DNA from: an archaeon
GTDB lineage: Archaea > Iainarchaeota > Iainarchaeia > Iainarchaeales > 1-14-0-10-31-34
Assembly: GCA_043819075.1 (NCBI GenBank)
Contig: JBDRFE010000019.1
Coordinates: forward strand, 1 to 44,285
Reading direction: 5' to 3'
Length of the DNA: 44,285 bases
Under the pieces are notes generated by a model. That model was not told the DNA's origin. It made no database searches and saw only the letters and a program-made list of their open reading frames with translations. The translations under genes and the position numbers were made by a program. Positions 1,185 through 43,505 of this stretch are shown here, piece after piece. Within the stretch, counting starts at the first letter, position 1, and every line of letters begins with the position of its first letter.

Positions 1185-2732
1185 ATGGCTGAAACAATGG
1201 GAAATTTTTTGCTGAACGAGGTTTTGTTCAGCAATGTAACTCAGGCTGTTGCAGTCATTGTTGCAGGATTAATTATTGCAAAGCTTTTGGGAAAAATCTT
1301 TGGCTTGCTGTTAAAAAAACAGAAAGTAAGCTATTATACTGTTGATTCTGCTGTTAGGTCAGTTGAATTGTTTGTTTTTGTTGTTTCTTTGATTATTGCT
1401 TTAAGCGTGTTAAAGGTTTCTGTTGCAGAAGTCCTTATTTCAAAGGTCATGGCTTTTATTCCTTCTGTGGTGATTTTTTTTCTTGTATTTGTTTTAGGGT
1501 ACATTTTAGTTACGTTAATTGCTGATGCATTAAGTTTTTTGTTCATTAAATTCGGTTCTGATTCTTATTTAGAGGAATTTGGCATTTCAAAACAGGTTAT
1601 TTCTGCTTTTTTCCTTATAGTAAAATTTTTTCTTTTATTGATTGTTTTAATGCTTTCTTTTTCTACTATCGGAATAGACATTGGCTTGTTTCAGGGTTTT
1701 TTTAACACTTTGATTACAGCAATAATTGTTTTAGCGCTTGCTTTATTCTTTTTTGGCTTTAAAGAAATTTTTGAAAACTTTTTTTCAGGGCTTTTTATTC
1801 AAAAAAATTTAATCAAGCCAGGCCAGCAAATCAAAATAGGCAATGAATTAGGGGAAGTAATCGGAGTTGACATTCACGGAGTAATGGTCAGGCTTGCTTC
1901 CGGATACAATCTGGTTGTGCCTAACAAGGAGTTCATTAAAAAGGAGTTTTACTTAAAGAGAGCCAGAAGCGATATTTCAAAACTTGAAAGCATTAGGGCA
2001 AAGTTTGTCCCTCAAATGAATTATTTTTGCGGCCCTGCTTCTGCTTCAATGATGCTGTCTTTTTTTGGCTATAATTTTTCGCAGCAGGAAATAGGAAAGC
2101 TTGCAGGAACAGTTTCTCCTGGCGGGACAAAGCCATTGGATTTAATTAAGGCAGTGGAAAAGCTTTCAAACAATTTAATTAAAGGCCAGTTAATTCGCTA
2201 TAACCAGATTTATAATTTAAGGGATGAAGTTAAAAGCTGGATTTCAGATAGTGCAATGATTTTAATGTGGTATAAAAAGCCTGTGTTGTTTCCTTCAAAG
2301 AAGTCAAGGTCAGGGCATTTTGTTTTGTGTGCTGGAGTTGAAGGAGATGAACTGATTTTAATGGATCCTTCGCCTCAGACTGCAGGGGTTTATTTGGTTG
2401 ATTACAGGTTAATGGATGAAGCAATGAGTGAAACAGACAAGAAAAGAGGTTATCTGGTGTTTGCAAAAAAGGGAACGCCTGCTTTTTGGAGAATAAATGA
2501 AGGGTTAATTTATGCTAATGTTGCTTCTTATAAAAATCTTTCAAAGTCTTTTGAAAGGTATGTGCATAAATTAATCAGGAGAAAATCTGTTGTTAATGAG
2601 CTTTTGTCGGAATTTGTTTTCAATGAAATTTCTTCTGACCCTGAAAAAAAAATAAAGAAAATCTGGATTCCAGAAAAAAGCTTAGATAAAAAGAAAAATG
2701 AATCAGATGGCTCTGATGCAGTGAACGACTAA
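1185..2732 (+). CDS. MscS-family mechanosensitive channel fused to a C-terminal C39-like (papain-fold) cysteine peptidase
   Basis: N-terminal multi-TM region, then MscS beta-domain (FENFFSG...IKPGQQIKIG..GEV...VVPN), then PQMNYFCGPAS (Q277/C282), GHFVL (H378) and LILMDP (D394). Confidence 0.85.
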   Translation: MAETMGNFLLNEVLFSNVTQAVAVIVAGLIIAKLLGKIFGLLLKKQKVSYYTVDSAVRSVELFVFVVSLIIALSVLKVSVAEVLISKVMAFIPSVVIFFLVFVLGYILVTLIADALSFLFIKFGSDSYLEEFGISKQVISAFFLIVKFFLLLIVLMLSFSTIGIDIGLFQGFFNTLITAIIVLALALFFFGFKEIFENFFSGLFIQKNLIKPGQQIKIGNELGEVIGVDIHGVMVRLASGYNLVVPNKEFIKKEFYLKRARSDISKLESIRAKFVPQMNYFCGPASASMMLSFFGYNFSQQEIGKLAGTVSPGGTKPLDLIKAVEKLSNNLIKGQLIRYNQIYNLRDEVKSWISDSAMILMWYKKPVLFPSKKSRSGHFVLCAGVEGDELILMDPSPQTAGVYLVDYRLMDEAMSETDKKRGYLVFAKKGTPAFWRINEGLIYANVASYKNLSKSFERYVHKLIRRKSVVNELLSEFVFNEISSDPEKKIKKIWIPEKSLDKKKNESDGSDAVND

Positions 2733-2744
2733 AAAAAGGTTTTT

Positions 2745-3587
2745 TTGATGAAAGCATTGTTTATTTTTGAAAAAGAAAATGAAGACATTTCAAAGCTAAA
2801 AGAAGCTTTTAACAAAAAAAATATTTCTGTTTCATTGGTTGAAATAGCCAAAATAGGCCTTTTAACTGAAGGCAAAGAAACTACTTTAACAACTAATGGA
2901 TTTAATTTAGAGGATTTTGACTGCTGTTTTATTGAAGCAGGAATCCAGTTCACGCGTTTCATTGAACCATTGATTGACGAGTTTTCCCAGAAAGGAGTTT
3001 ACTGCCAGGTCAAGCCAGATGCTTATTCTATTCTTTCAAACAAGGCTTTTCAGCTGACTACGCTGAACTCTAATGGAATTAAGATTCCTGACACAACTGT
3101 TTTTGGCTCAAGTTTTTTTATTAATTCTTCTTTAAAAGAGTTTTCTTTTCCTTTAGTGCTTCAGGTTTTTGACGGATACAAAAAAATACAGAATGTTTTG
3201 GTTGAATCAGAGAAAGCCCTTTTATCTATTGTGAAAAGCATTAAATCAGATTTTGATGTGTTATTGCTGCAGGAATTTTTTGAAAAAGACTTGAATGAAA
3301 GCGTTGTAATCGGGGACAATGTTTTTACTGTAAGAAGAGCATGGAACAAAGAAAAATTTGAGTACTCTAAAAAAGGCTCAAGCAGGGGCTTAAATGAACA
3401 AGAAAAAGCTAATGTAATTAATGCCTGTAAGGCAATCGGAATTGATATGGCTACAGTGAAATCCATTGAAGGCTGTGTTGTCAGCTTAAAGCCTGTAATT
3501 GATTTCAGTTTTTTTCAGGAAATAATGGGAAAAAACCTTTTTGAGGAAACCGCAGAATTTTATTTTAACAAGCTGAGGAAGGAATAA
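2745..3587 (+). CDS. RimK-like ATP-grasp protein, degenerate (probably catalytically inactive)
   Basis: Retains NK..LNSNGIKIPDT, FPLVL and LLQEF, but lacks the K-x3-G-x-G loop and the E-x-N motif. Confidence 0.75.
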   Translation: MMKALFIFEKENEDISKLKEAFNKKNISVSLVEIAKIGLLTEGKETTLTTNGFNLEDFDCCFIEAGIQFTRFIEPLIDEFSQKGVYCQVKPDAYSILSNKAFQLTTLNSNGIKIPDTTVFGSSFFINSSLKEFSFPLVLQVFDGYKKIQNVLVESEKALLSIVKSIKSDFDVLLLQEFFEKDLNESVVIGDNVFTVRRAWNKEKFEYSKKGSSRGLNEQEKANVINACKAIGIDMATVKSIEGCVVSLKPVIDFSFFQEIMGKNLFEETAEFYFNKLRKE

Positions 3588-3589
3588 AA

Positions 3590-4477
3590 ATGAAGTTTTT
3601 GTATATTGGCGGAAGCAATGAAAGGCAGGAAGTAAAGCAGTTGATTTTAGAGGAAGCGCATAAATTATTTGACACTGTATTGTATGCTCCGCTGAAAAAA
3701 ATAAAGATTGAATGCAGGAACGGAAAAACAAAACTGGTTTTCAAGGGAACTGACTTAACTTCTTTTGATGCCTGTTATGCAAGGCTTTTCTCCAAAGACT
3801 TAATGTTTGGCGAAATTGTTTTAGACATATTAAATCATTCAGATGTTTTTATTCCTTTGACTCCAGAGGCATTTCAGGCAACCAACCACAAATATTTTAC
3901 TGTTAAAGTTCTTTCAAGGGAAGGAATTCCTGTTCCTGTTTCTTCTTTGGCTGTTGCCCCTCAGACTGCAATTGACATGAGCCATAAAATGGGTTATCCG
4001 ATAATAATTAAGCTGCTGTCTGGTTTTGGAGGCAGAGGTGTAATGCGCGCTAACTCTGAAGAAGAATTCAGGCCTGTTTTGGACACTTTAAAGCTTTTCA
4101 GGGAATTCATTTCAACACAAGAATTTGTTAAGTCAGAAAATTATGATATACGGTGCCTTGTTTTTGGCGAAGAAGTTTACGGCATTAAAAGAACCTGCAG
4201 GGAAGGTGAATGGCGGACAAATGTTTCTGCCGGAGGAAAAGCAGAGTTAATTGAATTAAGTTCTGCAATGAAAGAAGATGCATTAAAGGTTTCAGCGATT
4301 TTAGGCTTGGGAGTCTGTGCTGTGGATTTCATGGAAGAACAGGGAAAATACAAGTTAATTGAAGTGAATTTTGCCCCTGGATTAATGATCGATTTTTTTG
4401 GCCCAAAGTTTCCGAATATTCTTGTCAAATACTTGTATAAAAAAACAAGGGAATTAAAGACAAGAAACAGGTTTTAA
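3590..4477 (+). CDS. RimK/LysX-family ATP-grasp amino-acid (alpha-L-glutamate) ligase
   Basis: YPIIIKLLSGFGGRGV, QEFV, DIRCLV, WRTNVSAGG, AVDF, IEVNFAPG. Confidence 0.9.
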   Translation: MKFLYIGGSNERQEVKQLILEEAHKLFDTVLYAPLKKIKIECRNGKTKLVFKGTDLTSFDACYARLFSKDLMFGEIVLDILNHSDVFIPLTPEAFQATNHKYFTVKVLSREGIPVPVSSLAVAPQTAIDMSHKMGYPIIIKLLSGFGGRGVMRANSEEEFRPVLDTLKLFREFISTQEFVKSENYDIRCLVFGEEVYGIKRTCREGEWRTNVSAGGKAELIELSSAMKEDALKVSAILGLGVCAVDFMEEQGKYKLIEVNFAPGLMIDFFGPKFPNILVKYLYKKTRELKTRNRF

Positions 4478-4482
4478 TACAT

Positions 4483-5307
4483 ATGAAGCTTGCAATAATT
4501 TCTTCTGAAAAACAGTTTGAAACTGAAAGAATAAAAGAAGAAGCAGTTAAAAGAAAGCATGTTGTTTCTGTTTTTCATCCAGAGGCATTACAGGCAGGCA
4601 TTGGCTTAGTGAAAAAAAAATTTGATTTGGTTTTATTCCGTACATTACAGGATTTTTCTTTGCAGGGAAGAGCACTTGCATTAAGCTTTTTTTCTTCTGG
4701 CACAAAAATTGTTGACGAAAAGCTTGCTTCAATGAATGGAAGAAATAAGTTCACAAACTATTATTGTTTTTTTAAAGCAGGCTTAAATATTCCAAAGACT
4801 TTTTTTTTGAATAGGAAAACTTTTTTTTCCCTTCCTTTTTCTGATTCTGATTGGATTGTATTAAAAGAGCTTGAAGGAAAAAGAGGAAAAGGAATTTACA
4901 GAATAAAGTTTTCTGAGATTCATTCTTTTCTGCCTTCAGTGAAAGAAAACTTTTTTTTGGTTCAGGAATTCATTCCATTTGAAAAAGAGTTAAGAGTTCT
5001 TGTAATAGGCGGAAAAGCAGTTGGCGCATTTGAAAAGCAGTCAAGTCATTGGCTGAAAAACATTGCACAAGATTCTGTTGCAGTTGAATTCAAATTAAAT
5101 AAAATGATTTCTGATATTGCCGTTAAAGCGGCTGAAAGCGCGCAGTTAGAGATTTCTGGCGTTGACCTTGCCTTGCATGAAAAAAAATGGTTTGTTTTAG
5201 AAACAAACCGTTCCCCGCAGTTCAAGGCTTTTGAGGAATGCACTGGAATAAATGCTGCCCAAAAAATAGTTGAATTCCTTGAAGAAAAAGCTAAAACAAG
5301 AAAGTGA
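4483..5307 (+). CDS. RimK-family ATP-grasp ligase
   Basis: GLNIPKT, VLKELEGKRGKGI, VQEFI, ELRVLVIGG, WLKNIAQ, GVDL, LETNRSPQF. Confidence 0.85.
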   Translation: MKLAIISSEKQFETERIKEEAVKRKHVVSVFHPEALQAGIGLVKKKFDLVLFRTLQDFSLQGRALALSFFSSGTKIVDEKLASMNGRNKFTNYYCFFKAGLNIPKTFFLNRKTFFSLPFSDSDWIVLKELEGKRGKGIYRIKFSEIHSFLPSVKENFFLVQEFIPFEKELRVLVIGGKAVGAFEKQSSHWLKNIAQDSVAVEFKLNKMISDIAVKAAESAQLEISGVDLALHEKKWFVLETNRSPQFKAFEECTGINAAQKIVEFLEEKAKTRK

Positions 5308-5316
5308 TTTTTTTTT

Positions 5317-5571
5317 ATGGAAAAAAAACTTGAGTTATTTGACAAAAAAGTAAAAAAAGAATCAAATAAAAAACAGGTTTCTTTCAGGTTCTGTCCTGCT
5401 TGCGGTTCAGTTAACTTAAAACCCCAGATTTATGGAATGGGAAAAGATGCTGTTGCATTGTCTCCTATGATGCGCTGCACTGACTGCGGGTTTTATGGAT
5501 TTGTTTTTGATGGAACGCCTGAATTCCTGAAAGAATTCAGGGAAAAACTTAAGAAAAATTCATCTGCCTGA
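5317..5571 (+). CDS. Small zinc-ribbon protein
   Basis: CPACGS...CTDCG; starts 9 bp after the third ligase. Confidence 0.7.
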   Translation: MEKKLELFDKKVKKESNKKQVSFRFCPACGSVNLKPQIYGMGKDAVALSPMMRCTDCGFYGFVFDGTPEFLKEFREKLKKNSSA

Positions 5572-29078: not shown

Positions 29079-30287
29079 TCATTGTTTCAGTTTTTTTAAT
29101 TCCAGTTCCTTGAACAGTTTAATGTAGTCCATTAAATGCCTTGTAATCAGGAAATTTTTTCTTACATGCTCTTTTCCTTGTTTGCCTAATTGTTTTCTCA
29201 GCTTTTCGTTTTTCAGCAATTTAACAGCCCTTTTTGCTGTGTCATCGGAATTATTGGTTAAGTAACCTGTTTTTCCGTCTAATACCTGCAGGGGAATTCC
29301 GCCTACTTTGCTTGCAATTACTGGCGTTTCTTTCCATAATGCTTCGCTTACAGTTAATGCAAATCCTTCTTTTATTGACCTCTGGAAAACTATTTCAGAG
29401 CTTCTCTGTAATGCGTTAACCAGAAAAGAATTGTTTTCTGTCAGCAATAAAACTGAGTCGTTTCCGTTGGCAAGTTTTTTTATTTTGTCGTAAATTTCTT
29501 TTCCTTCAGGGTCGTCGTCTGCAGTGTTTCCCAGCAATACAAGCCTGCAGTCAACTTCTTTTTTTATTTTTTCAAATGACTTTATCATTTCAGGAAAATC
29601 CTTCCATTTGTCAAACCTTGAAATCATTGAAATAATTGGCTTATCAAAGTCAACGCCTCTTTTTGAAAGAAATTTCCTGCATTTGCTTTCTTTTACTTCC
29701 TTGTTTTTTTCGTTTAATGGGTCAATTGAAGGATAAATTATGTAATGCGGTATTTTCAGTTTCTGCGCAAATTTTTCGTGTGAAAAAATTGCAGCGTCAT
29801 ATTTTTCTATGAACTGTTTTAGGTAATTCCATACTTCCCTGTTTGGATGCGATGAATCAAGATGAAATCTCCAAATCCAAGTGTGTTTTTTGTCGTAATA
29901 GTTTATTAACGGAACTGGCTGCGGGTCATGCACTATAACATAATCGTGGTCTTCTATGTGTTGGATGAATGCATTCCTTTCATTGTATTTTAAGTGAATT
30001 CTTTTTTTCATCGGGCTTAAATTAATTTTTTCCCCGTGCATTGCGTTATGGAATTTTTTTGTTATTTCAAAGAAATCCCAGGGGCCTGCAATAACCCTCC
30101 AGCCTGTTTTCAATCCAACGTCATTCATTAAGTAAACTAAGCTGTTAAGTATTTCTGCTACCCCCCCGCCATAATGAGTTGAATTAATGTGAACAAAATG
30201 CCTTGAACACAACGGAGTTGCTTCTTCAAAAATCCTGTTAACTTCTTTTTCGCCGATTATTTCAGAATATTTTTTTAAAAATTTCAT
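29079..30287 (-). CDS. treT: TreT-like trehalose synthase (GT4 glycosyltransferase)
   Basis: HINSTHYGGGVAEIL, TKKFHNA, HDPQP, WIWRFH, PSIDPL, SRFDKWKD, DDPEG, EGFALTVSEALWK. Confidence 0.88.
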   Translation of the reverse strand: MKFLKKYSEIIGEKEVNRIFEEATPLCSRHFVHINSTHYGGGVAEILNSLVYLMNDVGLKTGWRVIAGPWDFFEITKKFHNAMHGEKINLSPMKKRIHLKYNERNAFIQHIEDHDYVIVHDPQPVPLINYYDKKHTWIWRFHLDSSHPNREVWNYLKQFIEKYDAAIFSHEKFAQKLKIPHYIIYPSIDPLNEKNKEVKESKCRKFLSKRGVDFDKPIISMISRFDKWKDFPEMIKSFEKIKKEVDCRLVLLGNTADDDPEGKEIYDKIKKLANGNDSVLLLTENNSFLVNALQRSSEIVFQRSIKEGFALTVSEALWKETPVIASKVGGIPLQVLDGKTGYLTNNSDDTAKRAVKLLKNEKLRKQLGKQGKEHVRKNFLITRHLMDYIKLFKELELKKLKQ

Positions 30288-30373
30288 TTCATTTTTTTTA
30301 AGGATGGATATGTTTAAATTAATTGTCTATTTCAATTAACGAATGAAGCTTTTGATGAGGACGGCAAAATTAA

Positions 30374-31795
30374 ATGTTTTTTCCAGATAAAGGCAGGTTA
30401 ATTCTTGTTTCAAACAGAGAACCTTATTCTAATTACTTTCATAAAGAAAAAATTGTTTTGCAGTCAACCGGCGGAAGCCTTGTATCTGTTTTAGACCCTT
30501 TAATGCGTGAGGCAGGCAATACCTGGGTTGCATGGGGAAGCGGCAAAGCAGATTTTGAGGCAACTGATTCAAGCCAGAGAATAATGATTGGAAGCAAAAA
30601 AAATTCTTACTGGCTGAGAAGAATAAAGCTTTCAAAAAAAGAAGTAAACGAGTATTATATTGGTTTTTCTAACAGGACTTTATGGCCTTTAGTTCATTTA
30701 ATGACTGAAAAAGTGCAGTTCAATGAAAATTACTGGAAAACCTACAAAGAAGTAAATGAAAGGTTTGCAAACATTTCAGTTGAACAGTTCAGGAAAAACG
30801 ATTTTGTCTGGGTTCAGGACTATCAATTGTGTTTAGTTCCAAATTTAATCAGGAAAAAAAGAAAGAATGCAAGAATTGCATTTTTTTTCCATCTGCCCTG
30901 GCCTCCTTGGGATGTTTTCAGGATTCTTCCCCAGAAAAGGGAACTGCTGAAAGGAATCCTTGGAGCTGACTTAATTGGCTTTCATACAAAAAAGTATGCA
31001 AAAAATTTTTTGGATTGTGTGGCAACAGAGTTTAAGCTTAAGCCAAAAAAAGGTTCAGTTAAGTTTGAAGGCAGAAAAATTTCTGTTAAAGCTTTTCCTC
31101 TGGGAGTTGATTTTCAGGCATTGCAGAAAGCATCTGAATTAAAGAAATCAGTTGAAGTCCAGAAAGATATCAGGAAAAGCGTTAACTCTGAGTTCATGCT
31201 GTTAGGGGTTGACAGGCTTGATTATTCAAAAGGCATTCCAAACAAGTTAAGGGCTTTCAGATTGTTCCTTGAAAAATACCCGTCTTTCAGGAAAAAAGTT
31301 GTTTTAGTTCAGCTGATTACTCCTTCAAGGTCAAAGGCAAAAGAATACAAGGCATTAGAAGAAGAAATTGATTTCCTTGCAGGAGAAATAAACGGTGAAT
31401 ACCAGAAACTTTCTTGGATTCCAATCAGAAGCCTTGACAGGTTTGTTTCAAAAGAAAGATTAATTGGTTATTACCGTGCTGCAGACATTGCATTGGTTAC
31501 TCCTTTGATTGACGGAATGAACCTGGTTGCAAAAGAATTTATTGCAGCAAAAAAAGACAACAATGCTTCGCTTATTTTAAGTTCTTTTGCCGGGGCAGCA
31601 GAAGAATTAAAGAAAGCAATTTTAGTGAATCCATTCAATGAAAGTGAAGTGGCTGAAGCAATCCATAAAGCCATTGCAATGAAACCAGAACAAAAAAGAA
31701 AGAATTTTATGGCATTAAAAAAGTCAGTTGAAAAAAATAATATTTTTGTCTGGTTAAATGATTTTATTTCAGAGTGGAAGGAAATTTATTCTTAG
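30374..31795 (+). CDS. otsA: Trehalose-6-phosphate synthase (GT20)
   Basis: VSNREP, FSNRTLWP, VWVQDYQL, ADLIGFH, GVDRLDYSKGI, DGMNLVAKEF, VNPF. Confidence 0.95.
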   Translation: MFFPDKGRLILVSNREPYSNYFHKEKIVLQSTGGSLVSVLDPLMREAGNTWVAWGSGKADFEATDSSQRIMIGSKKNSYWLRRIKLSKKEVNEYYIGFSNRTLWPLVHLMTEKVQFNENYWKTYKEVNERFANISVEQFRKNDFVWVQDYQLCLVPNLIRKKRKNARIAFFFHLPWPPWDVFRILPQKRELLKGILGADLIGFHTKKYAKNFLDCVATEFKLKPKKGSVKFEGRKISVKAFPLGVDFQALQKASELKKSVEVQKDIRKSVNSEFMLLGVDRLDYSKGIPNKLRAFRLFLEKYPSFRKKVVLVQLITPSRSKAKEYKALEEEIDFLAGEINGEYQKLSWIPIRSLDRFVSKERLIGYYRAADIALVTPLIDGMNLVAKEFIAAKKDNNASLILSSFAGAAEELKKAILVNPFNESEVAEAIHKAIAMKPEQKRKNFMALKKSVEKNNIFVWLNDFISEWKEIYS

Positions 31796-31806
31796 AAGCT
31801 GATTAA

Positions 31807-32541
31807 ATGAAAGTATTCCTTTTCCTTGATTATGATGGTACGTTAGTTTCTTTTAAGCCAAGGCCAGAGCAGGCAAAGCCTGGAAAAAAACTTTTAAGGC
31901 TAATCAGAAAACTCTGCGTGAAAAAAAATTTTGTTGTTTCAGTTGTAAGCGGAAGGACAATGAAAGAACTTAAAGGCTTTCTTCCAATAAAAAATCTTGT
32001 TTTTGCTTCAAGCCACGGCACACAAATAAGTTTTCATTCAAAAAAAGAATTTGTTTTTTCAGGTGCACTAAAAGCTGTTCCTGTAATAAAAAAAATTGCT
32101 TTTCTTTCAGAAAAAAAGTTTTCTTCAGTTAAAGGGCTTTTATTGCAGGACAAGAAAACTGCTTTTGTACTGCATTACAGGAACGTTGAAAAAAAACTGC
32201 ATGTAAAACTAAAAACTGCTTTCAGGAAAATAGTTAAAGAAACTGACACAAAAAAACAGCTTGAATTAATTTCAGGCGCAATGGTTTTAGAGGCAAGGCC
32301 AAAGCACTGGAACAAGGGAAGCGCAGTAAAGTTAATTCTGAAAGAATTCAAGAGAAAGAAAAATGATTCAGTGTTTTATTTCGGAGACGATTTAACTGAC
32401 GAAGACGCTTTTAAGGCATTAAAAAAAGATTTTACTTTCCTTGTTTCACAGGAAAAAAAGAAATCAAATGCAGTCTTCAGGATAAAGCAGGATAAAGTAA
32501 TTCCTTTGCTCAGGCTTTTCTTAGGTTTTCCTAACCTTTAA
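31807..32541 (+). CDS. otsB: Trehalose-6-phosphate phosphatase (HAD)
   Basis: FLDYDGTL, VSGR, HYRN, EARP..WNKG, GDDLTDEDAF. Confidence 0.93.
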   Translation: MKVFLFLDYDGTLVSFKPRPEQAKPGKKLLRLIRKLCVKKNFVVSVVSGRTMKELKGFLPIKNLVFASSHGTQISFHSKKEFVFSGALKAVPVIKKIAFLSEKKFSSVKGLLLQDKKTAFVLHYRNVEKKLHVKLKTAFRKIVKETDTKKQLELISGAMVLEARPKHWNKGSAVKLILKEFKRKKNDSVFYFGDDLTDEDAFKALKKDFTFLVSQEKKKSNAVFRIKQDKVIPLLRLFLGFPNL

Positions 32542-41138: not shown

Positions 41139-43505
41139 TTAGAGTTCCCTTAAGTAGCCCCATGCATGAAGCCTGTCAGAGTCTTCAGACCATCTGTCTC
41201 CGATGTCTGTCCTGTAATACATGTGCGGGATATTAATGTTTTTTACTCTAGAGTAAAGCTGGTGTTGTGCTTGCTTCATTGTAGAGCCTGTTCCGCAGAC
41301 AATTAATGCTACTCCTGCTGTTCCTGTTATCACCCATTCTTCGTTGACAAGTTTAATGTCTTCTATGTGGACTCCTTCAGTTGGTTTCTTGAAATACACA
41401 ACCGAATCTTTTGATTTTACGTTAAATGTTTCGTTGTCTGTGAAAGGAAATGGCGGGACAACTAATCTTATTCCAATCTGGAAGCCGGTTTTTGTTTTTA
41501 GTTTTGGTGTTTCTCCTTTTGATAATTCGTATAAAAATTCTCCCATTGGAGTAATCATTCCTTCTTGTTGAATGCTTATGGTTGGATAACCAAATCTTGA
41601 AGTCCATTCAAGCGGGTAAATTCCGTAATTGTTTACTATGCAGTTAATGTCAATGTATCCAACGTAATTTTCTTCTGCGAGTTTTGATTCCATTTTTTTT
41701 AGTGTGCTGTTGAATATTTTGTTTGGCCCGCTCCAGAACATAAATGTATTTCCGCACCAGAAAGGCTTTCCGTTTTTTCTTACAAACATTACGTGGTTTT
41801 TTACTGTGGCGCAGTAAACTTTTCCGTTGTAATCAATTATTTTTGTGTCCCGTTTGTCTATCCATGAATTAGTTTTTTTTACTCTTTCATGCACTTCGTA
41901 TTGAGGTTTATTTGATTCTGCGTAATGGTCTTTAATCCATTTTTTGCCGTATCTTTCTCTTTTTTTTATTATTCCTGTTTTTCCTGTTTTTAAAAGCAGT
42001 TCCTGTAAATCGTCAGCCATTTTTTTTGATGAAGTGTAAAAAATCCTGTATCCGCCTTTCATTTTTGTTGCGTCGCCTAAAGCAAACCATTCAAGGAATA
42101 ATTCAATCTGTTTTTTGCCAAGGCTTTTTATAAAATCTGGAACAAATTTTTCCGGTGCCTTGCCGAATGCTTCAAGGAATGAACCAAGTTGTTTGCTGTA
42201 AGCATAAAATTCGTTTTCTCTTTTAGAAAACTTGAACTGAAGTTTTTCTAAAAGTTTTTCTATTTTTTCTGTTTTTCCAGGAGTTTTTTGGCAGACAGAT
42301 ATTTTGTTGTTTGAAGCGCACCCGTCTGAAAGCCATATTCCCATAAACGAAACCCATAAATCCATTGGAATAATTATTTCCTGTGTTTTATGCAGCATTA
42401 CCTGCCTTCCTTCGTAATGGCCTAATTCTATTGCGGGCAGGATAAAATTTTCTTGTGTTATTCCAGTCCAGTTTCCAGTTCTTTTTATTACTGCCTGGCT
42501 TGGCAGGTCTTTTGCTTTAATGAATTCAAATTTGTTTTTTTTGTTTCTTGCGTTCTCCTGTGTTGAAACATACATGTTGTGGTCTAATGTGACTGCAATG
42601 TCTAGAGTCTGGTTTTTGACTGAAACAAGTTTTTTGTGATGGCTGAAAGAAACAATTAATTCTGGTGTGTGAAATTCTATTTCATCGTTTGATGGATTTA
42701 AAGTGCATAGTTTGTCTTGGTTTTTTAGTTCTTTGAATAATTTCCATCCGTTGTCTGTTAAAACTTCTGTTTTTTCGTCATAGCATCCCATTTCTCCTGT
42801 GCTTGGCCCTAAGTTTCCCGGAAAAAGTTTTTTGTTTTCAAAGTTAACGTTAATTGGATAGATAAATTCTTTTCCGTTAAAGAATGCTCCGACTGCAACT
42901 TCTACTCCTGAAATCTTTTTTTGCAGCTGGAATAAAGGCATTTTTTTTGACCAAGCTTTTTTGTAGTCGTTTAGTACTTGTATTACATCTTTTCCGTCTT
43001 CTTCTTCTCCTACAAAAAGCATTCCTTTAATGTTTTGTGCTTCACCGCTTGGCTTTATGACGTATTTGCCTGGATTTTCCTGCACAAAACTTATTGCGTC
43101 ATCAAATGAAGTGAAGTCTTTGTATGAAATTATTGGCACGCCGGCTTTTTTTAGTTCTTCTTGTCCGAATGCCCTGTCGTCTTCCAGCATGTCAGTGTAT
43201 GGTGTTCCGCCCACAACATTTTTGCCTTGTTCTCTTAATTTTTTTGCTTTTTTTCCCTGCCCTAAAACGTCATCAAAGATTATTGTGTCAGCCCAGTCAA
43301 CTTCTTTCTGCCAGTCATCAACTTTTTCCACGAATCCGTCGCCGACTTCTTTGTCTTCAGGGTTTTCAGTGTAATATTTTGCCTGATGGCCTTCTTTTAT
43401 TAACTGCCATGCAAGGTCTGCAGTTAATGTGTCAAGTGAAATGAAAAGAAATTTTTTTGAATCAATTTTTTTTTCATTGCCGTTGTGGTTGTTTTTTGTT
43501 TCCAT
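41139..43505 (-). CDS. Phosphoribosylamine--glycine ligase-like (PurD-like) ATP-grasp protein containing an intein
   Basis: LEDDRAFGQ, YVIKPSG, GVEVAV, NFENKK, GPSTGEMG^T, GYIDIN, PLEWTSRFGYP, YYRTDIG; 442 aa after intein removal. Confidence 0.8.
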   Translation of the reverse strand: METKNNHNGNEKKIDSKKFLFISLDTLTADLAWQLIKEGHQAKYYTENPEDKEVGDGFVEKVDDWQKEVDWADTIIFDDVLGQGKKAKKLREQGKNVVGGTPYTDMLEDDRAFGQEELKKAGVPIISYKDFTSFDDAISFVQENPGKYVIKPSGEAQNIKGMLFVGEEEDGKDVIQVLNDYKKAWSKKMPLFQLQKKISGVEVAVGAFFNGKEFIYPINVNFENKKLFPGNLGPSTGEMGCYDEKTEVLTDNGWKLFKELKNQDKLCTLNPSNDEIEFHTPELIVSFSHHKKLVSVKNQTLDIAVTLDHNMYVSTQENARNKKNKFEFIKAKDLPSQAVIKRTGNWTGITQENFILPAIELGHYEGRQVMLHKTQEIIIPMDLWVSFMGIWLSDGCASNNKISVCQKTPGKTEKIEKLLEKLQFKFSKRENEFYAYSKQLGSFLEAFGKAPEKFVPDFIKSLGKKQIELFLEWFALGDATKMKGGYRIFYTSSKKMADDLQELLLKTGKTGIIKKRERYGKKWIKDHYAESNKPQYEVHERVKKTNSWIDKRDTKIIDYNGKVYCATVKNHVMFVRKNGKPFWCGNTFMFWSGPNKIFNSTLKKMESKLAEENYVGYIDINCIVNNYGIYPLEWTSRFGYPTISIQQEGMITPMGEFLYELSKGETPKLKTKTGFQIGIRLVVPPFPFTDNETFNVKSKDSVVYFKKPTEGVHIEDIKLVNEEWVITGTAGVALIVCGTGSTMKQAQHQLYSRVKNINIPHMYYRTDIGDRWSEDSDRLHAWGYLREL
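41748..42785 (-). mobile_element. Intein (346 aa) with LAGLIDADG-type homing endonuclease
   Basis: Block A CYDEKTEVLTDNGW; block B VTLDHNM; endonuclease blocks FMGIWLSDG and FLEWFALGDA, TSSKKMADDLQELL; block F/G VYCATV..HVMFVR..WCGN/T. Confidence 0.92.

Follow-up and report, generated by a model that had tools for sequence, protein, structure and literature searches.

A conserved fusion of an MscS-like membrane module and a papain-fold cysteine peptidase domain, clustered with RimK-family ligase genes in DPANN archaea

Why should a membrane module of the MscS channel family carry a cysteine peptidase domain in the same polypeptide? This question is raised by one gene in a 44,285-nucleotide stretch of DNA (hereafter the window) from an archaeon of the Iainarchaeota (contig JBDRFE010000019.1 of assembly GCA_043819075.1). 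A preliminary description, made from the sequence alone, regarded the product as an MscS channel whose cytoplasmic cage had been replaced by an intact C39-like peptidase, and proposed a ring of peptidase or transpeptidase sites that might be regulated by membrane tension. The features that bear on these proposals are collected in Table 1.

Table 1. Position and basis of the features discussed (positions are those of the window)
Feature	Position	Strand	Basis
Divergent M29 aminopeptidase gene, truncated by the contig start and continuing on contig C71	1..993	-	Pfam; 141-base overlap
MscS-like/cysteine peptidase fusion gene, 515 aa	1185..2732	+	ORF; Pfam; homolog alignment
Cage-less (CmpX/NF033912-like) MscS module: five hydrophobic segments and beta-domain	1185..1958	+	Pfam, hydropathy, stand-alone relatives
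C39/phytochelatin-synthase-like papain-fold domain, about aa 260-429, with Q277, C282, H378 and D394	1962..2471	+	Alignment, profile, model
Conserved helical extension, about aa 430-497 (R436, Y449, W494, P496), then variable low-confidence end	2472..2675	+	Alignment, model
RimK-A: RimK-like ATP-grasp pseudo-ligase without catalytic motifs	2745..3587	+	Pfam; clade of 43
RimK-B: RimK-family alpha-L-glutamate-ligase-type protein, motifs intact	3590..4477	+	TIGR00768, 147.4 bits, above the cut-off of 143.4
RimK-C: third ATP-grasp ligase, motifs intact	4483..5307	+	TIGR00768, 142.5 bits, just below the cut-off; clade C1

The reading frame of the fusion gene is unbroken, and its Pfam architecture is the one that had been claimed: MS_channel_1st_1 (PF05552) at residues 84-126 and the MS_channel_2nd beta-domain (PF00924, E 1e-6) at residues 195-255, both above cut-off, followed by Peptidase_C39_2 (PF13529) at residues 275-395 (E 1e-9; 39.3 bits against a cut-off of 24). 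The alpha/beta cage domain family gave no Pfam match at E<=0.1, and neither ABC transmembrane nor nucleotide-binding domains were matched in the protein, the length of which is filled by the other domains. Relatives of the fusion are encoded on 129 stretches of GTDB genomes, and contigs from four public runs were free of indels across the gene, with the junction itself barely bridged; neither a frameshift nor an assembly fusion was seen, and an artefactual origin was therefore rejected. The closest named relatives, which include Iainarchaeum/Diapherotrites records, are 78-80% identical. Among the 80 stretches kept out of the 129, the taxon labels are mostly Iainarchaeota/Diapherotrites, Micrarchaeota, Aenigmatarchaeota, Nanohaloarchaeota and Woesearchaeota, the remainder being "uncultured archaeon" or "Methanosarcinales". 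When 54 near-full-length homologs from several DPANN phyla, the window protein among them, were aligned, the linker between beta-domain and peptidase had the same length in all. The distribution is patchy, with the fusion in 26 of 215 genomes of its own phylum (one a fragment) and in 2 of 251 genomes sampled from another class. The fusion is a genuine, conserved and apparently undescribed architecture; among titles and abstract beginnings, a scope outside which the 2009 amidoligase survey of Iyer et al. lies, we found no published description of a peptidase domain joined to a protein of the MscS family, nor of a RimK system in DPANN archaea.

The channel half contains hydrophobic segments at residues 21-39, 62-80, 95-113, 138-156 and 172-190 by hydropathy scan and a beta-domain at about residues 195-258, and Foldseek matched it to MscS, MscK, YnaI and TcMscS. 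Because five transmembrane segments end at residue 190 and are followed by a beta-domain, which in MscS is cytoplasmic according to the consulted part of PMC12334622, the peptidase domain is predicted to lie in the cytoplasm, in agreement with the placement of the C-terminus originally proposed. In a profile search covering 1.84 billion representatives, most of the best matches after the fusions were proteins of about 260-300 aa that stand alone and match the channel half only. All six that were scanned carry PF05552 and PF00924 and not the alpha/beta family; they resemble NF033912 below its cut-off, which is a likeness and not formal membership. Past the beta-domain there are 1-19 residues in 68 stand-alone relatives, 106-108 in three canonical MscS proteins and, across 91 fusions, 251 at the median. 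A quick IQ-TREE tree of 63 of these 162 sequences placed the 23 fusion halves in one clade (SH-aLRT 99) among the cage-less proteins, with canonical MscS on a long branch. Since the channel half groups with CmpX/NF033912-like proteins that are already cage-less, the peptidase was probably appended to such a module, and the view that it took the place of the cage is not upheld. In the portion of PMC13591265 that defines the cage, it comprises a beta half and an alpha/beta half; by that definition the alpha/beta half alone is missing from the fusion and the beta half is retained.

Genes for mini-MscS proteins, with open frames of only 177-243 aa, were also noticed in at least 20 of the 251 genomes (G037, G041, G054, G057, G069 and 15 more); they contrast with the consulted part of PMC12334622, in which the absence of the alpha/beta domain is treated as unique to TcMscS. 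At three loci (L030, L032 and L037) the fusion is preceded, about 2 kb upstream, by a second, stand-alone cage-less MscS gene (about 3050-4020, minus strand).

Whether the module conducts is a separate matter. The pore helix TM3a of the fusions is bulky and without the canonical richness in Gly and Ala: in an 18-residue window, Gly, Ala and Ser together averaged 4.2 residues for the fusions (n=89), 5.6 for cage-less proteins that stand alone (n=60) and 8.7 for canonical proteins (n=3, a small control). The genome also has a separate canonical, caged MscS on contig C60. Both points place conduction by the fusion in doubt, and channel activity is best called putative. As cage-less TcMscS is a heptamer and still tension-gated in the excerpted account (PMC12334622), a heptameric ring is plausible for the fusion by analogy. 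The same finding lends something to the proposal that membrane stretch moves the channel and thereby turns on a ring of peptidase sites, as do the direct attachment behind the beta-domain with its constant linker length and, in the excerpt available from PMC12239564, the requirement for rloABC (a RimB-like protease, an ATP-grasp protein and a membrane protein) under hypo-osmotic stress. The same part of PMC12334622, however, describes the beta-domain as a rigid, static element in gating, the pore helix is poor in Gly and Ala, and channel and protease are separate genes in the split form presented below. Regulation by tension, as first suggested, is thus not borne out, and a tension-gated protease or sensor now seems quite improbable.

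The complete Q277/C282/H378/D394 set announced for the peptidase half was confirmed: the four residues do not vary among the 54 aligned homologs and align with the Q, C, H and D of Nostoc Alr0975. K365, E386, R421-G-Y, R436 and Y449 are invariant in the same alignment. In a wider set of 91 full-length homologs, with identities down to about 30%, all four catalytic residues are kept in 78, while one or more have been lost in 13, across several lineages, which indicates that cleavage is dispensable in some. A profile built from 80 domain sequences and searched against solved structures placed the Nostoc phytochelatin synthase Alr0975 first (E 3.6e-7) over positions 12-168, that is, the whole domain, with Q/C/H/D and a C-terminal AM..D..RG motif aligned. 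The suspected kinship to phytochelatin synthase therefore holds, and by sequence the nearest protein of solved structure is one that hydrolyses gamma-glutamyl peptides. Further profile matches were PeiR (E 0.006) and, at positions 21-69 only (the first third of the domain), ComA and PCAT1 (E 0.1-0.3). The domain was also modeled (pLDDT 86). Compared with solved structures, the model gave Z 18.5 for PeiR (rmsd 2.3, 149 aligned), Z 16.1 for Alr0975 (rmsd 2.9, 162 aligned), Z 16.2 for a phage lyase domain and Z 15.7 for the ComA peptidase (rmsd 2.2, 136 aligned). With PeiR best by predicted fold and the other three tied, the fold leaves the substrate unfixed.

Phytochelatin synthesis needs a second-substrate site formed by Arg173, Lys206 and Tyr207, according to the part of PMC3855540 consulted; at these positions the profile alignment, as we read it, gives K365, T399 and A400 in the fusion. 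The acceptor-site Lys and Tyr are thus not kept and the essential Arg is a Lys, an exchange (R152K) that in AtPCS1 keeps 0.01% activity, while Alr0975 itself is mainly a hydrolase (same excerpt of PMC3855540). Loss of the site would favor a hydrolase over the transpeptidase that had been entertained. A transpeptidase would join gamma-glutamyl units, made by GCS2 and ATP-grasp ligases, into longer peptides in the manner of phytochelatin synthase; the whole-domain match to Alr0975 with its C-terminal motif agrees with it, and so do the GCS2 genes present in 12 of the 81 loci surveyed and linked in the genome studied here. But GCS2 was not seen in the other 69 loci (6-kb flanks, some contigs short), and with the acceptor site lost this is the least probable of the readings considered.

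The C39 resemblance raises another possibility, namely that the ligases build a short peptide, which the C39-like domain clips and the MscS pore exports, as in peptidase-containing ABC transporters. The Pfam C39 match and the fold match to the ComA/PCAT1 peptidase domains (Z 14-15.7) speak for it, and an MscS homolog is cited as an exit route for glutamate in Corynebacterium, to judge from reference titles. The profile match to ComA/PCAT, however, covers the first third of the domain only, as against the whole domain for Alr0975; the fusion is without an ABC domain, and among ORFs of at least 70 aa no small precursor or ABC gene recurred in the 81 loci. The RimB-type loci of the same phylum, moreover, are without a nearby channel, and processing with export appears rather unlikely.

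Stand-alone peptidase domains were searched for in the range 125-445 aa. The 21 matches resemble fragments of the fusion. Two other proteins, P0107 (232 aa) and P0111 (236 aa), may be stand-alone or split forms. As to the tail of about 90 residues with an acidic end that had been noted, the tail itself stands: it is about 88 aa long and its helical part is conserved. The acidic end does not, since the stretch beyond the helical part varies among homologs from 0 to 48 residues and from -7 to +7 in net charge, and it was rejected as a functional motif. No fold match for residues 430-497 was present in the match lists, which barely probe the tail.

The main clue to the function of the fusion is the cluster of RimK-like genes that follows it. 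The gaps from the fusion to RimK-A, RimK-B and RimK-C are 12, 2 and 5 bases. As a consensus, the RimK-A clade (n=43) is missing GxGGxG, DxR, RxN, D and ExN; the motifs are invariant in 48 of 48 RimK-B proteins and kept in 13 of 13 members of the RimK-C clade C1. The window thus shows a fusion with intact catalytic residues accompanied by one dead RimK (RimK-A) and one live RimK (RimK-B). On the other side of the fusion, the end of contig C71 overlaps the window start by 141 bases, and beyond the M29 gene C71 carries a gene of the GCS2 ligase family (match 7457-6144); the order M29 then GCS2 is repeated in L003-L005. Prediction of a complex of RimK-A, RimK-B and the peptidase domain gave 0.00, 0.57 and 0.00 in three runs, values that speak neither for nor against such a complex.

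To follow the cluster across genomes, 81 loci (the 80 kept stretches and the window) were surveyed with flanks of up to 6 kb, some contigs being short. A RimK-like gene lies within 6 kb in 53 of them (RimK-B in 48, RimK-A in 43), and RimK-A and RimK-B form separate clades, each spanning phyla. A third gene of the same cluster occurs in 31 loci; four of the 31 belong to a divergent clade, one tested member of which is an AstE/AspA-type hydrolase. Genes of the DUF1611-like, GCS2, FGase, M20 or M29 kind accompany 42 of the 53 loci with RimK, in contrast to 0 of the 28 without; besides GCS2 they are a DUF1611-like P-loop gene (21 loci, to be taken as a lead), M29 (7), M20 (6) and FGase (5). In the 28 genomes with a lone fusion, RimK is encoded elsewhere in 25 (E<=1e-45), against a background of 50 of 251 in the class-wide sample, and all 28 lone fusions retain Q/C/H/D. 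RimB adjoins RimK in 14 of the 19 RimK loci examined in these genomes. As the lone fusions keep their catalytic residues in spite of this, fusion and RimB are not simply interchangeable there.

The relation of the fusion to RimB was then followed within its own phylum. Among the 215 genomes, RimK-B gave a strong match in 83 (87 at E<=1e-30), the fusion was found in 26 and a RimB-type retropepsin in 56 (PF05618 confirmed on three of three tested); fusion and RimB occur together in no genome and in no family. RimK-B is present in 25 of the 26 fusion genomes and in 55 of the 56 RimB genomes, and only 3 of the 83 RimK-B genomes have neither fusion nor RimB. PF05618 was not matched in the genome studied here (90.6% complete) or in any of the 26 fusion genomes. 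At loci without the fusion, RimB stands beside the ligase genes in 14 of 15 fetched, on the opposite strand and upstream of RimK-A. No MscS gene was seen near RimB-RimK in these 15 loci, which indicates that the ligases need no channel as a neighbor. A Fisher p of 3e-18 for fusion against RimB was set aside because related genomes are not independent, and since the RimB-linked RimK-B genes form one clade (SH-aLRT 100, quick IQ-TREE tree) the mutual exclusion possibly reflects one replacement event. In another class a split form was found: cage-less MscS, RimB, RimK and a degenerate RimK lie on one strand in four of five loci, which had been picked for their RimK genes and form one clade. A third protease enters at two of the 81 fusion loci, where a MATCAP-type carboxypeptidase is encoded; these are exactly the two sister loci, one clade, in which the peptidase is catalytically defective. 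The counts of such swaps and of lone fusions take in one genome, G004, that is flagged unpublished.

At six RimB-RimK loci without the fusion (L109-L112, L117 and L118), the RimK pair is flanked by a GNAT acetyltransferase gene and by either one or two genes for carboxypeptidases of the MATCAP family (PF08014), often with an M29 aminopeptidase as well.

RimB removes glutamates from polyglutamylated targets (consulted parts of PMC11957791 and PMC10092738) and stimulates synthesis of poly-alpha-glutamate by RimK (same part of PMC11957791). Because related genomes without the fusion carry the unrelated RimB-type protease beside the same ligases, because RimB both trims and stimulates, and because the membrane operon rloABC counters hypo-osmotic stress, the fusion is read here, with a probability of about 0.5, as a membrane-anchored hydrolase or trimmer of glutamyl peptides in a RimK add-and-trim system, an analogue of RimB. 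By analogy with other RimK-family members, RimK-B, with RimK-A as its non-catalytic partner, would ligate glutamate at the expense of ATP, and its products may be free glutamyl peptides or protein tails. A scan of the genome for substrates ending in glutamate gave 11 of 2239 crude ORFs with a terminal EE or acidic run, none of them compelling, and no conserved target of this kind emerged. As the gene swapping suggests, the peptidase domain would hydrolyse these products and may also bind or regulate the ligase. The membrane module would form a heptamer with an axial pore, modeled on TcMscS, from which the peptidase sites hang. In the weakest step, released glutamate or short peptides would exit via the pore and couple the glutamate store to osmotic balance.

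A bolder version makes the system an osmotic "glutamate bank" of DPANN archaea: the dead/live RimK pair would polymerise glutamate, and seven cysteine-peptidase sites beneath the axial pore of a heptameric, cage-less MscS would cut the polymer, the channel releasing the products upon membrane stretch. This we regard as unlikely; if true, a mechanosensitive channel would for the first time double as an enzyme acting on its own permeant. Alternatively, the peptidase fold may chiefly bind the ligase pair or its product at the membrane, with catalysis and conduction secondary. Such a scaffold would account for the 13 full-length homologs that retain the domain without the catalytic set, in which R436, Y449 and W494 stay conserved, and it has a parallel in RloB, an inactive transglutaminase-like membrane protein of the analogous Pseudomonas operon (PMC12239564, in the part consulted). 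Against it, most homologs keep all four residues even at low identity, and lone copies keep them with no ligase gene adjacent, so a role as mere anchor seems improbable.

The proposed membrane-anchored trimmer is most readily compared with RimK/RimB(/RimA) of Pseudomonas and RimK of E. coli, where a RimK-family ligase is likewise paired with a protease gene and where RimB-type genes occupy the place that the fusion has in related genomes. The protease there is a soluble retropepsin, whereas here it is a papain-fold cysteine enzyme joined to a membrane module, and an extra conserved dead RimK paralogue, often with a third ligase, is present. By this analogy the fusion system likely works like RimK/RimB, of which it is not a member, RimB being missing. 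To our knowledge, archaea are without the bacterial S6 target of RimK. A RimK-MscS neighborhood presumably exists in annotated bacterial genomes as well; of two records returned by a plasmid search, the one inspected was without a channel gene.

RloABC of P. aeruginosa also combines an ATP-grasp protein, a protease that cuts poly-Glu and a membrane protein bearing a domain of the transglutaminase type, all encoded by one operon with a link to hypo-osmotic stress; there, according to the excerpt of PMC12239564, a secreted protease goes with a protein of seven transmembrane segments whose periplasmic domain is inactive. The peptidase-fold domain of the fusion, in contrast, is mostly intact, predicted to be cytoplasmic and joined to an MscS module. 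With TcMscS (PDB 9bgq) and CmpX/NF033912-like proteins the fusion shares the transmembrane core and beta-domain and the lack of an alpha/beta domain, but it has a predicted catalytic extension of about 250 aa and a bulkier pore helix poorer in Gly. With canonical MscS it shares the core and beta-domain, but neither the alpha/beta cage domain nor the Gly/Ala-rich pore helix. The papain fold, aligned Q/C/H/D and C-terminal RG motif are common to Alr0975, also PeiR and the C39 domains of ComA/PCAT1, whereas membrane anchoring, an extra conserved helical tail, absence of an ABC transporter and loss of the second-substrate-site residues set the fusion apart; judged by its residues and domains, it belongs neither with the PCATs nor with the phytochelatin synthases.

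Reduced DPANN genomes devote three to five genes to the fusion/RimK module, and the triad of cage-less MscS, protease and RimK pair occurs with two unrelated proteases. Such recurrence, and retention in reduced genomes, suggests that glutamyl-peptide metabolism is tied to the membrane in a way that has gone unrecognised. With this cluster one could examine directly how RimK acts in cells that lack its textbook target, and whether an MscS scaffold can have an enzyme coupled to it; every part is small and can be expressed in E. coli.

Some further observations concern the setting of these genes. In Nanohaloarchaeota the cassette follows genes that we take to encode ribosomal protein S6e and the gamma subunit of aIF2. 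Cassettes in this translation gene cluster were noted at L022, L026-L038, L043, L049, L054, L056, L061 and L070-L074, and the cluster may be a mere insertion site. RimK of the Woesearchaeota type (L081, L084-L104) is about 360 aa long, of which about 70 aa form a conserved extension at the C-terminus; in the one protein tested, this extension had no Pfam match. In the window, a small zinc-ribbon gene with weak Pfam matches (5317-5571, plus strand) follows RimK-C; it was seen in four close relatives (a cluster of five) and at none of the other loci. Just upstream of the fusion start, two head-to-tail copies of the 16-base unit ttaatatgtttaaggt lie at 1145-1176, with an AT-rich TATA-like stretch near 1120-1131 ahead of them; the repeat is possibly a regulator site in a divergent promoter region. 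A 788-aa ORF at 41139-43505 (plus strand) is presumably an ATP-grasp/purine-ligase-type protein with an intein-like insert. Finally, genes at 29079-32541, which we take to be for trehalose synthesis (glycosyltransferase, trehalose-6-phosphate synthase and phosphatase), would make up a second osmolyte-related locus on the contig.
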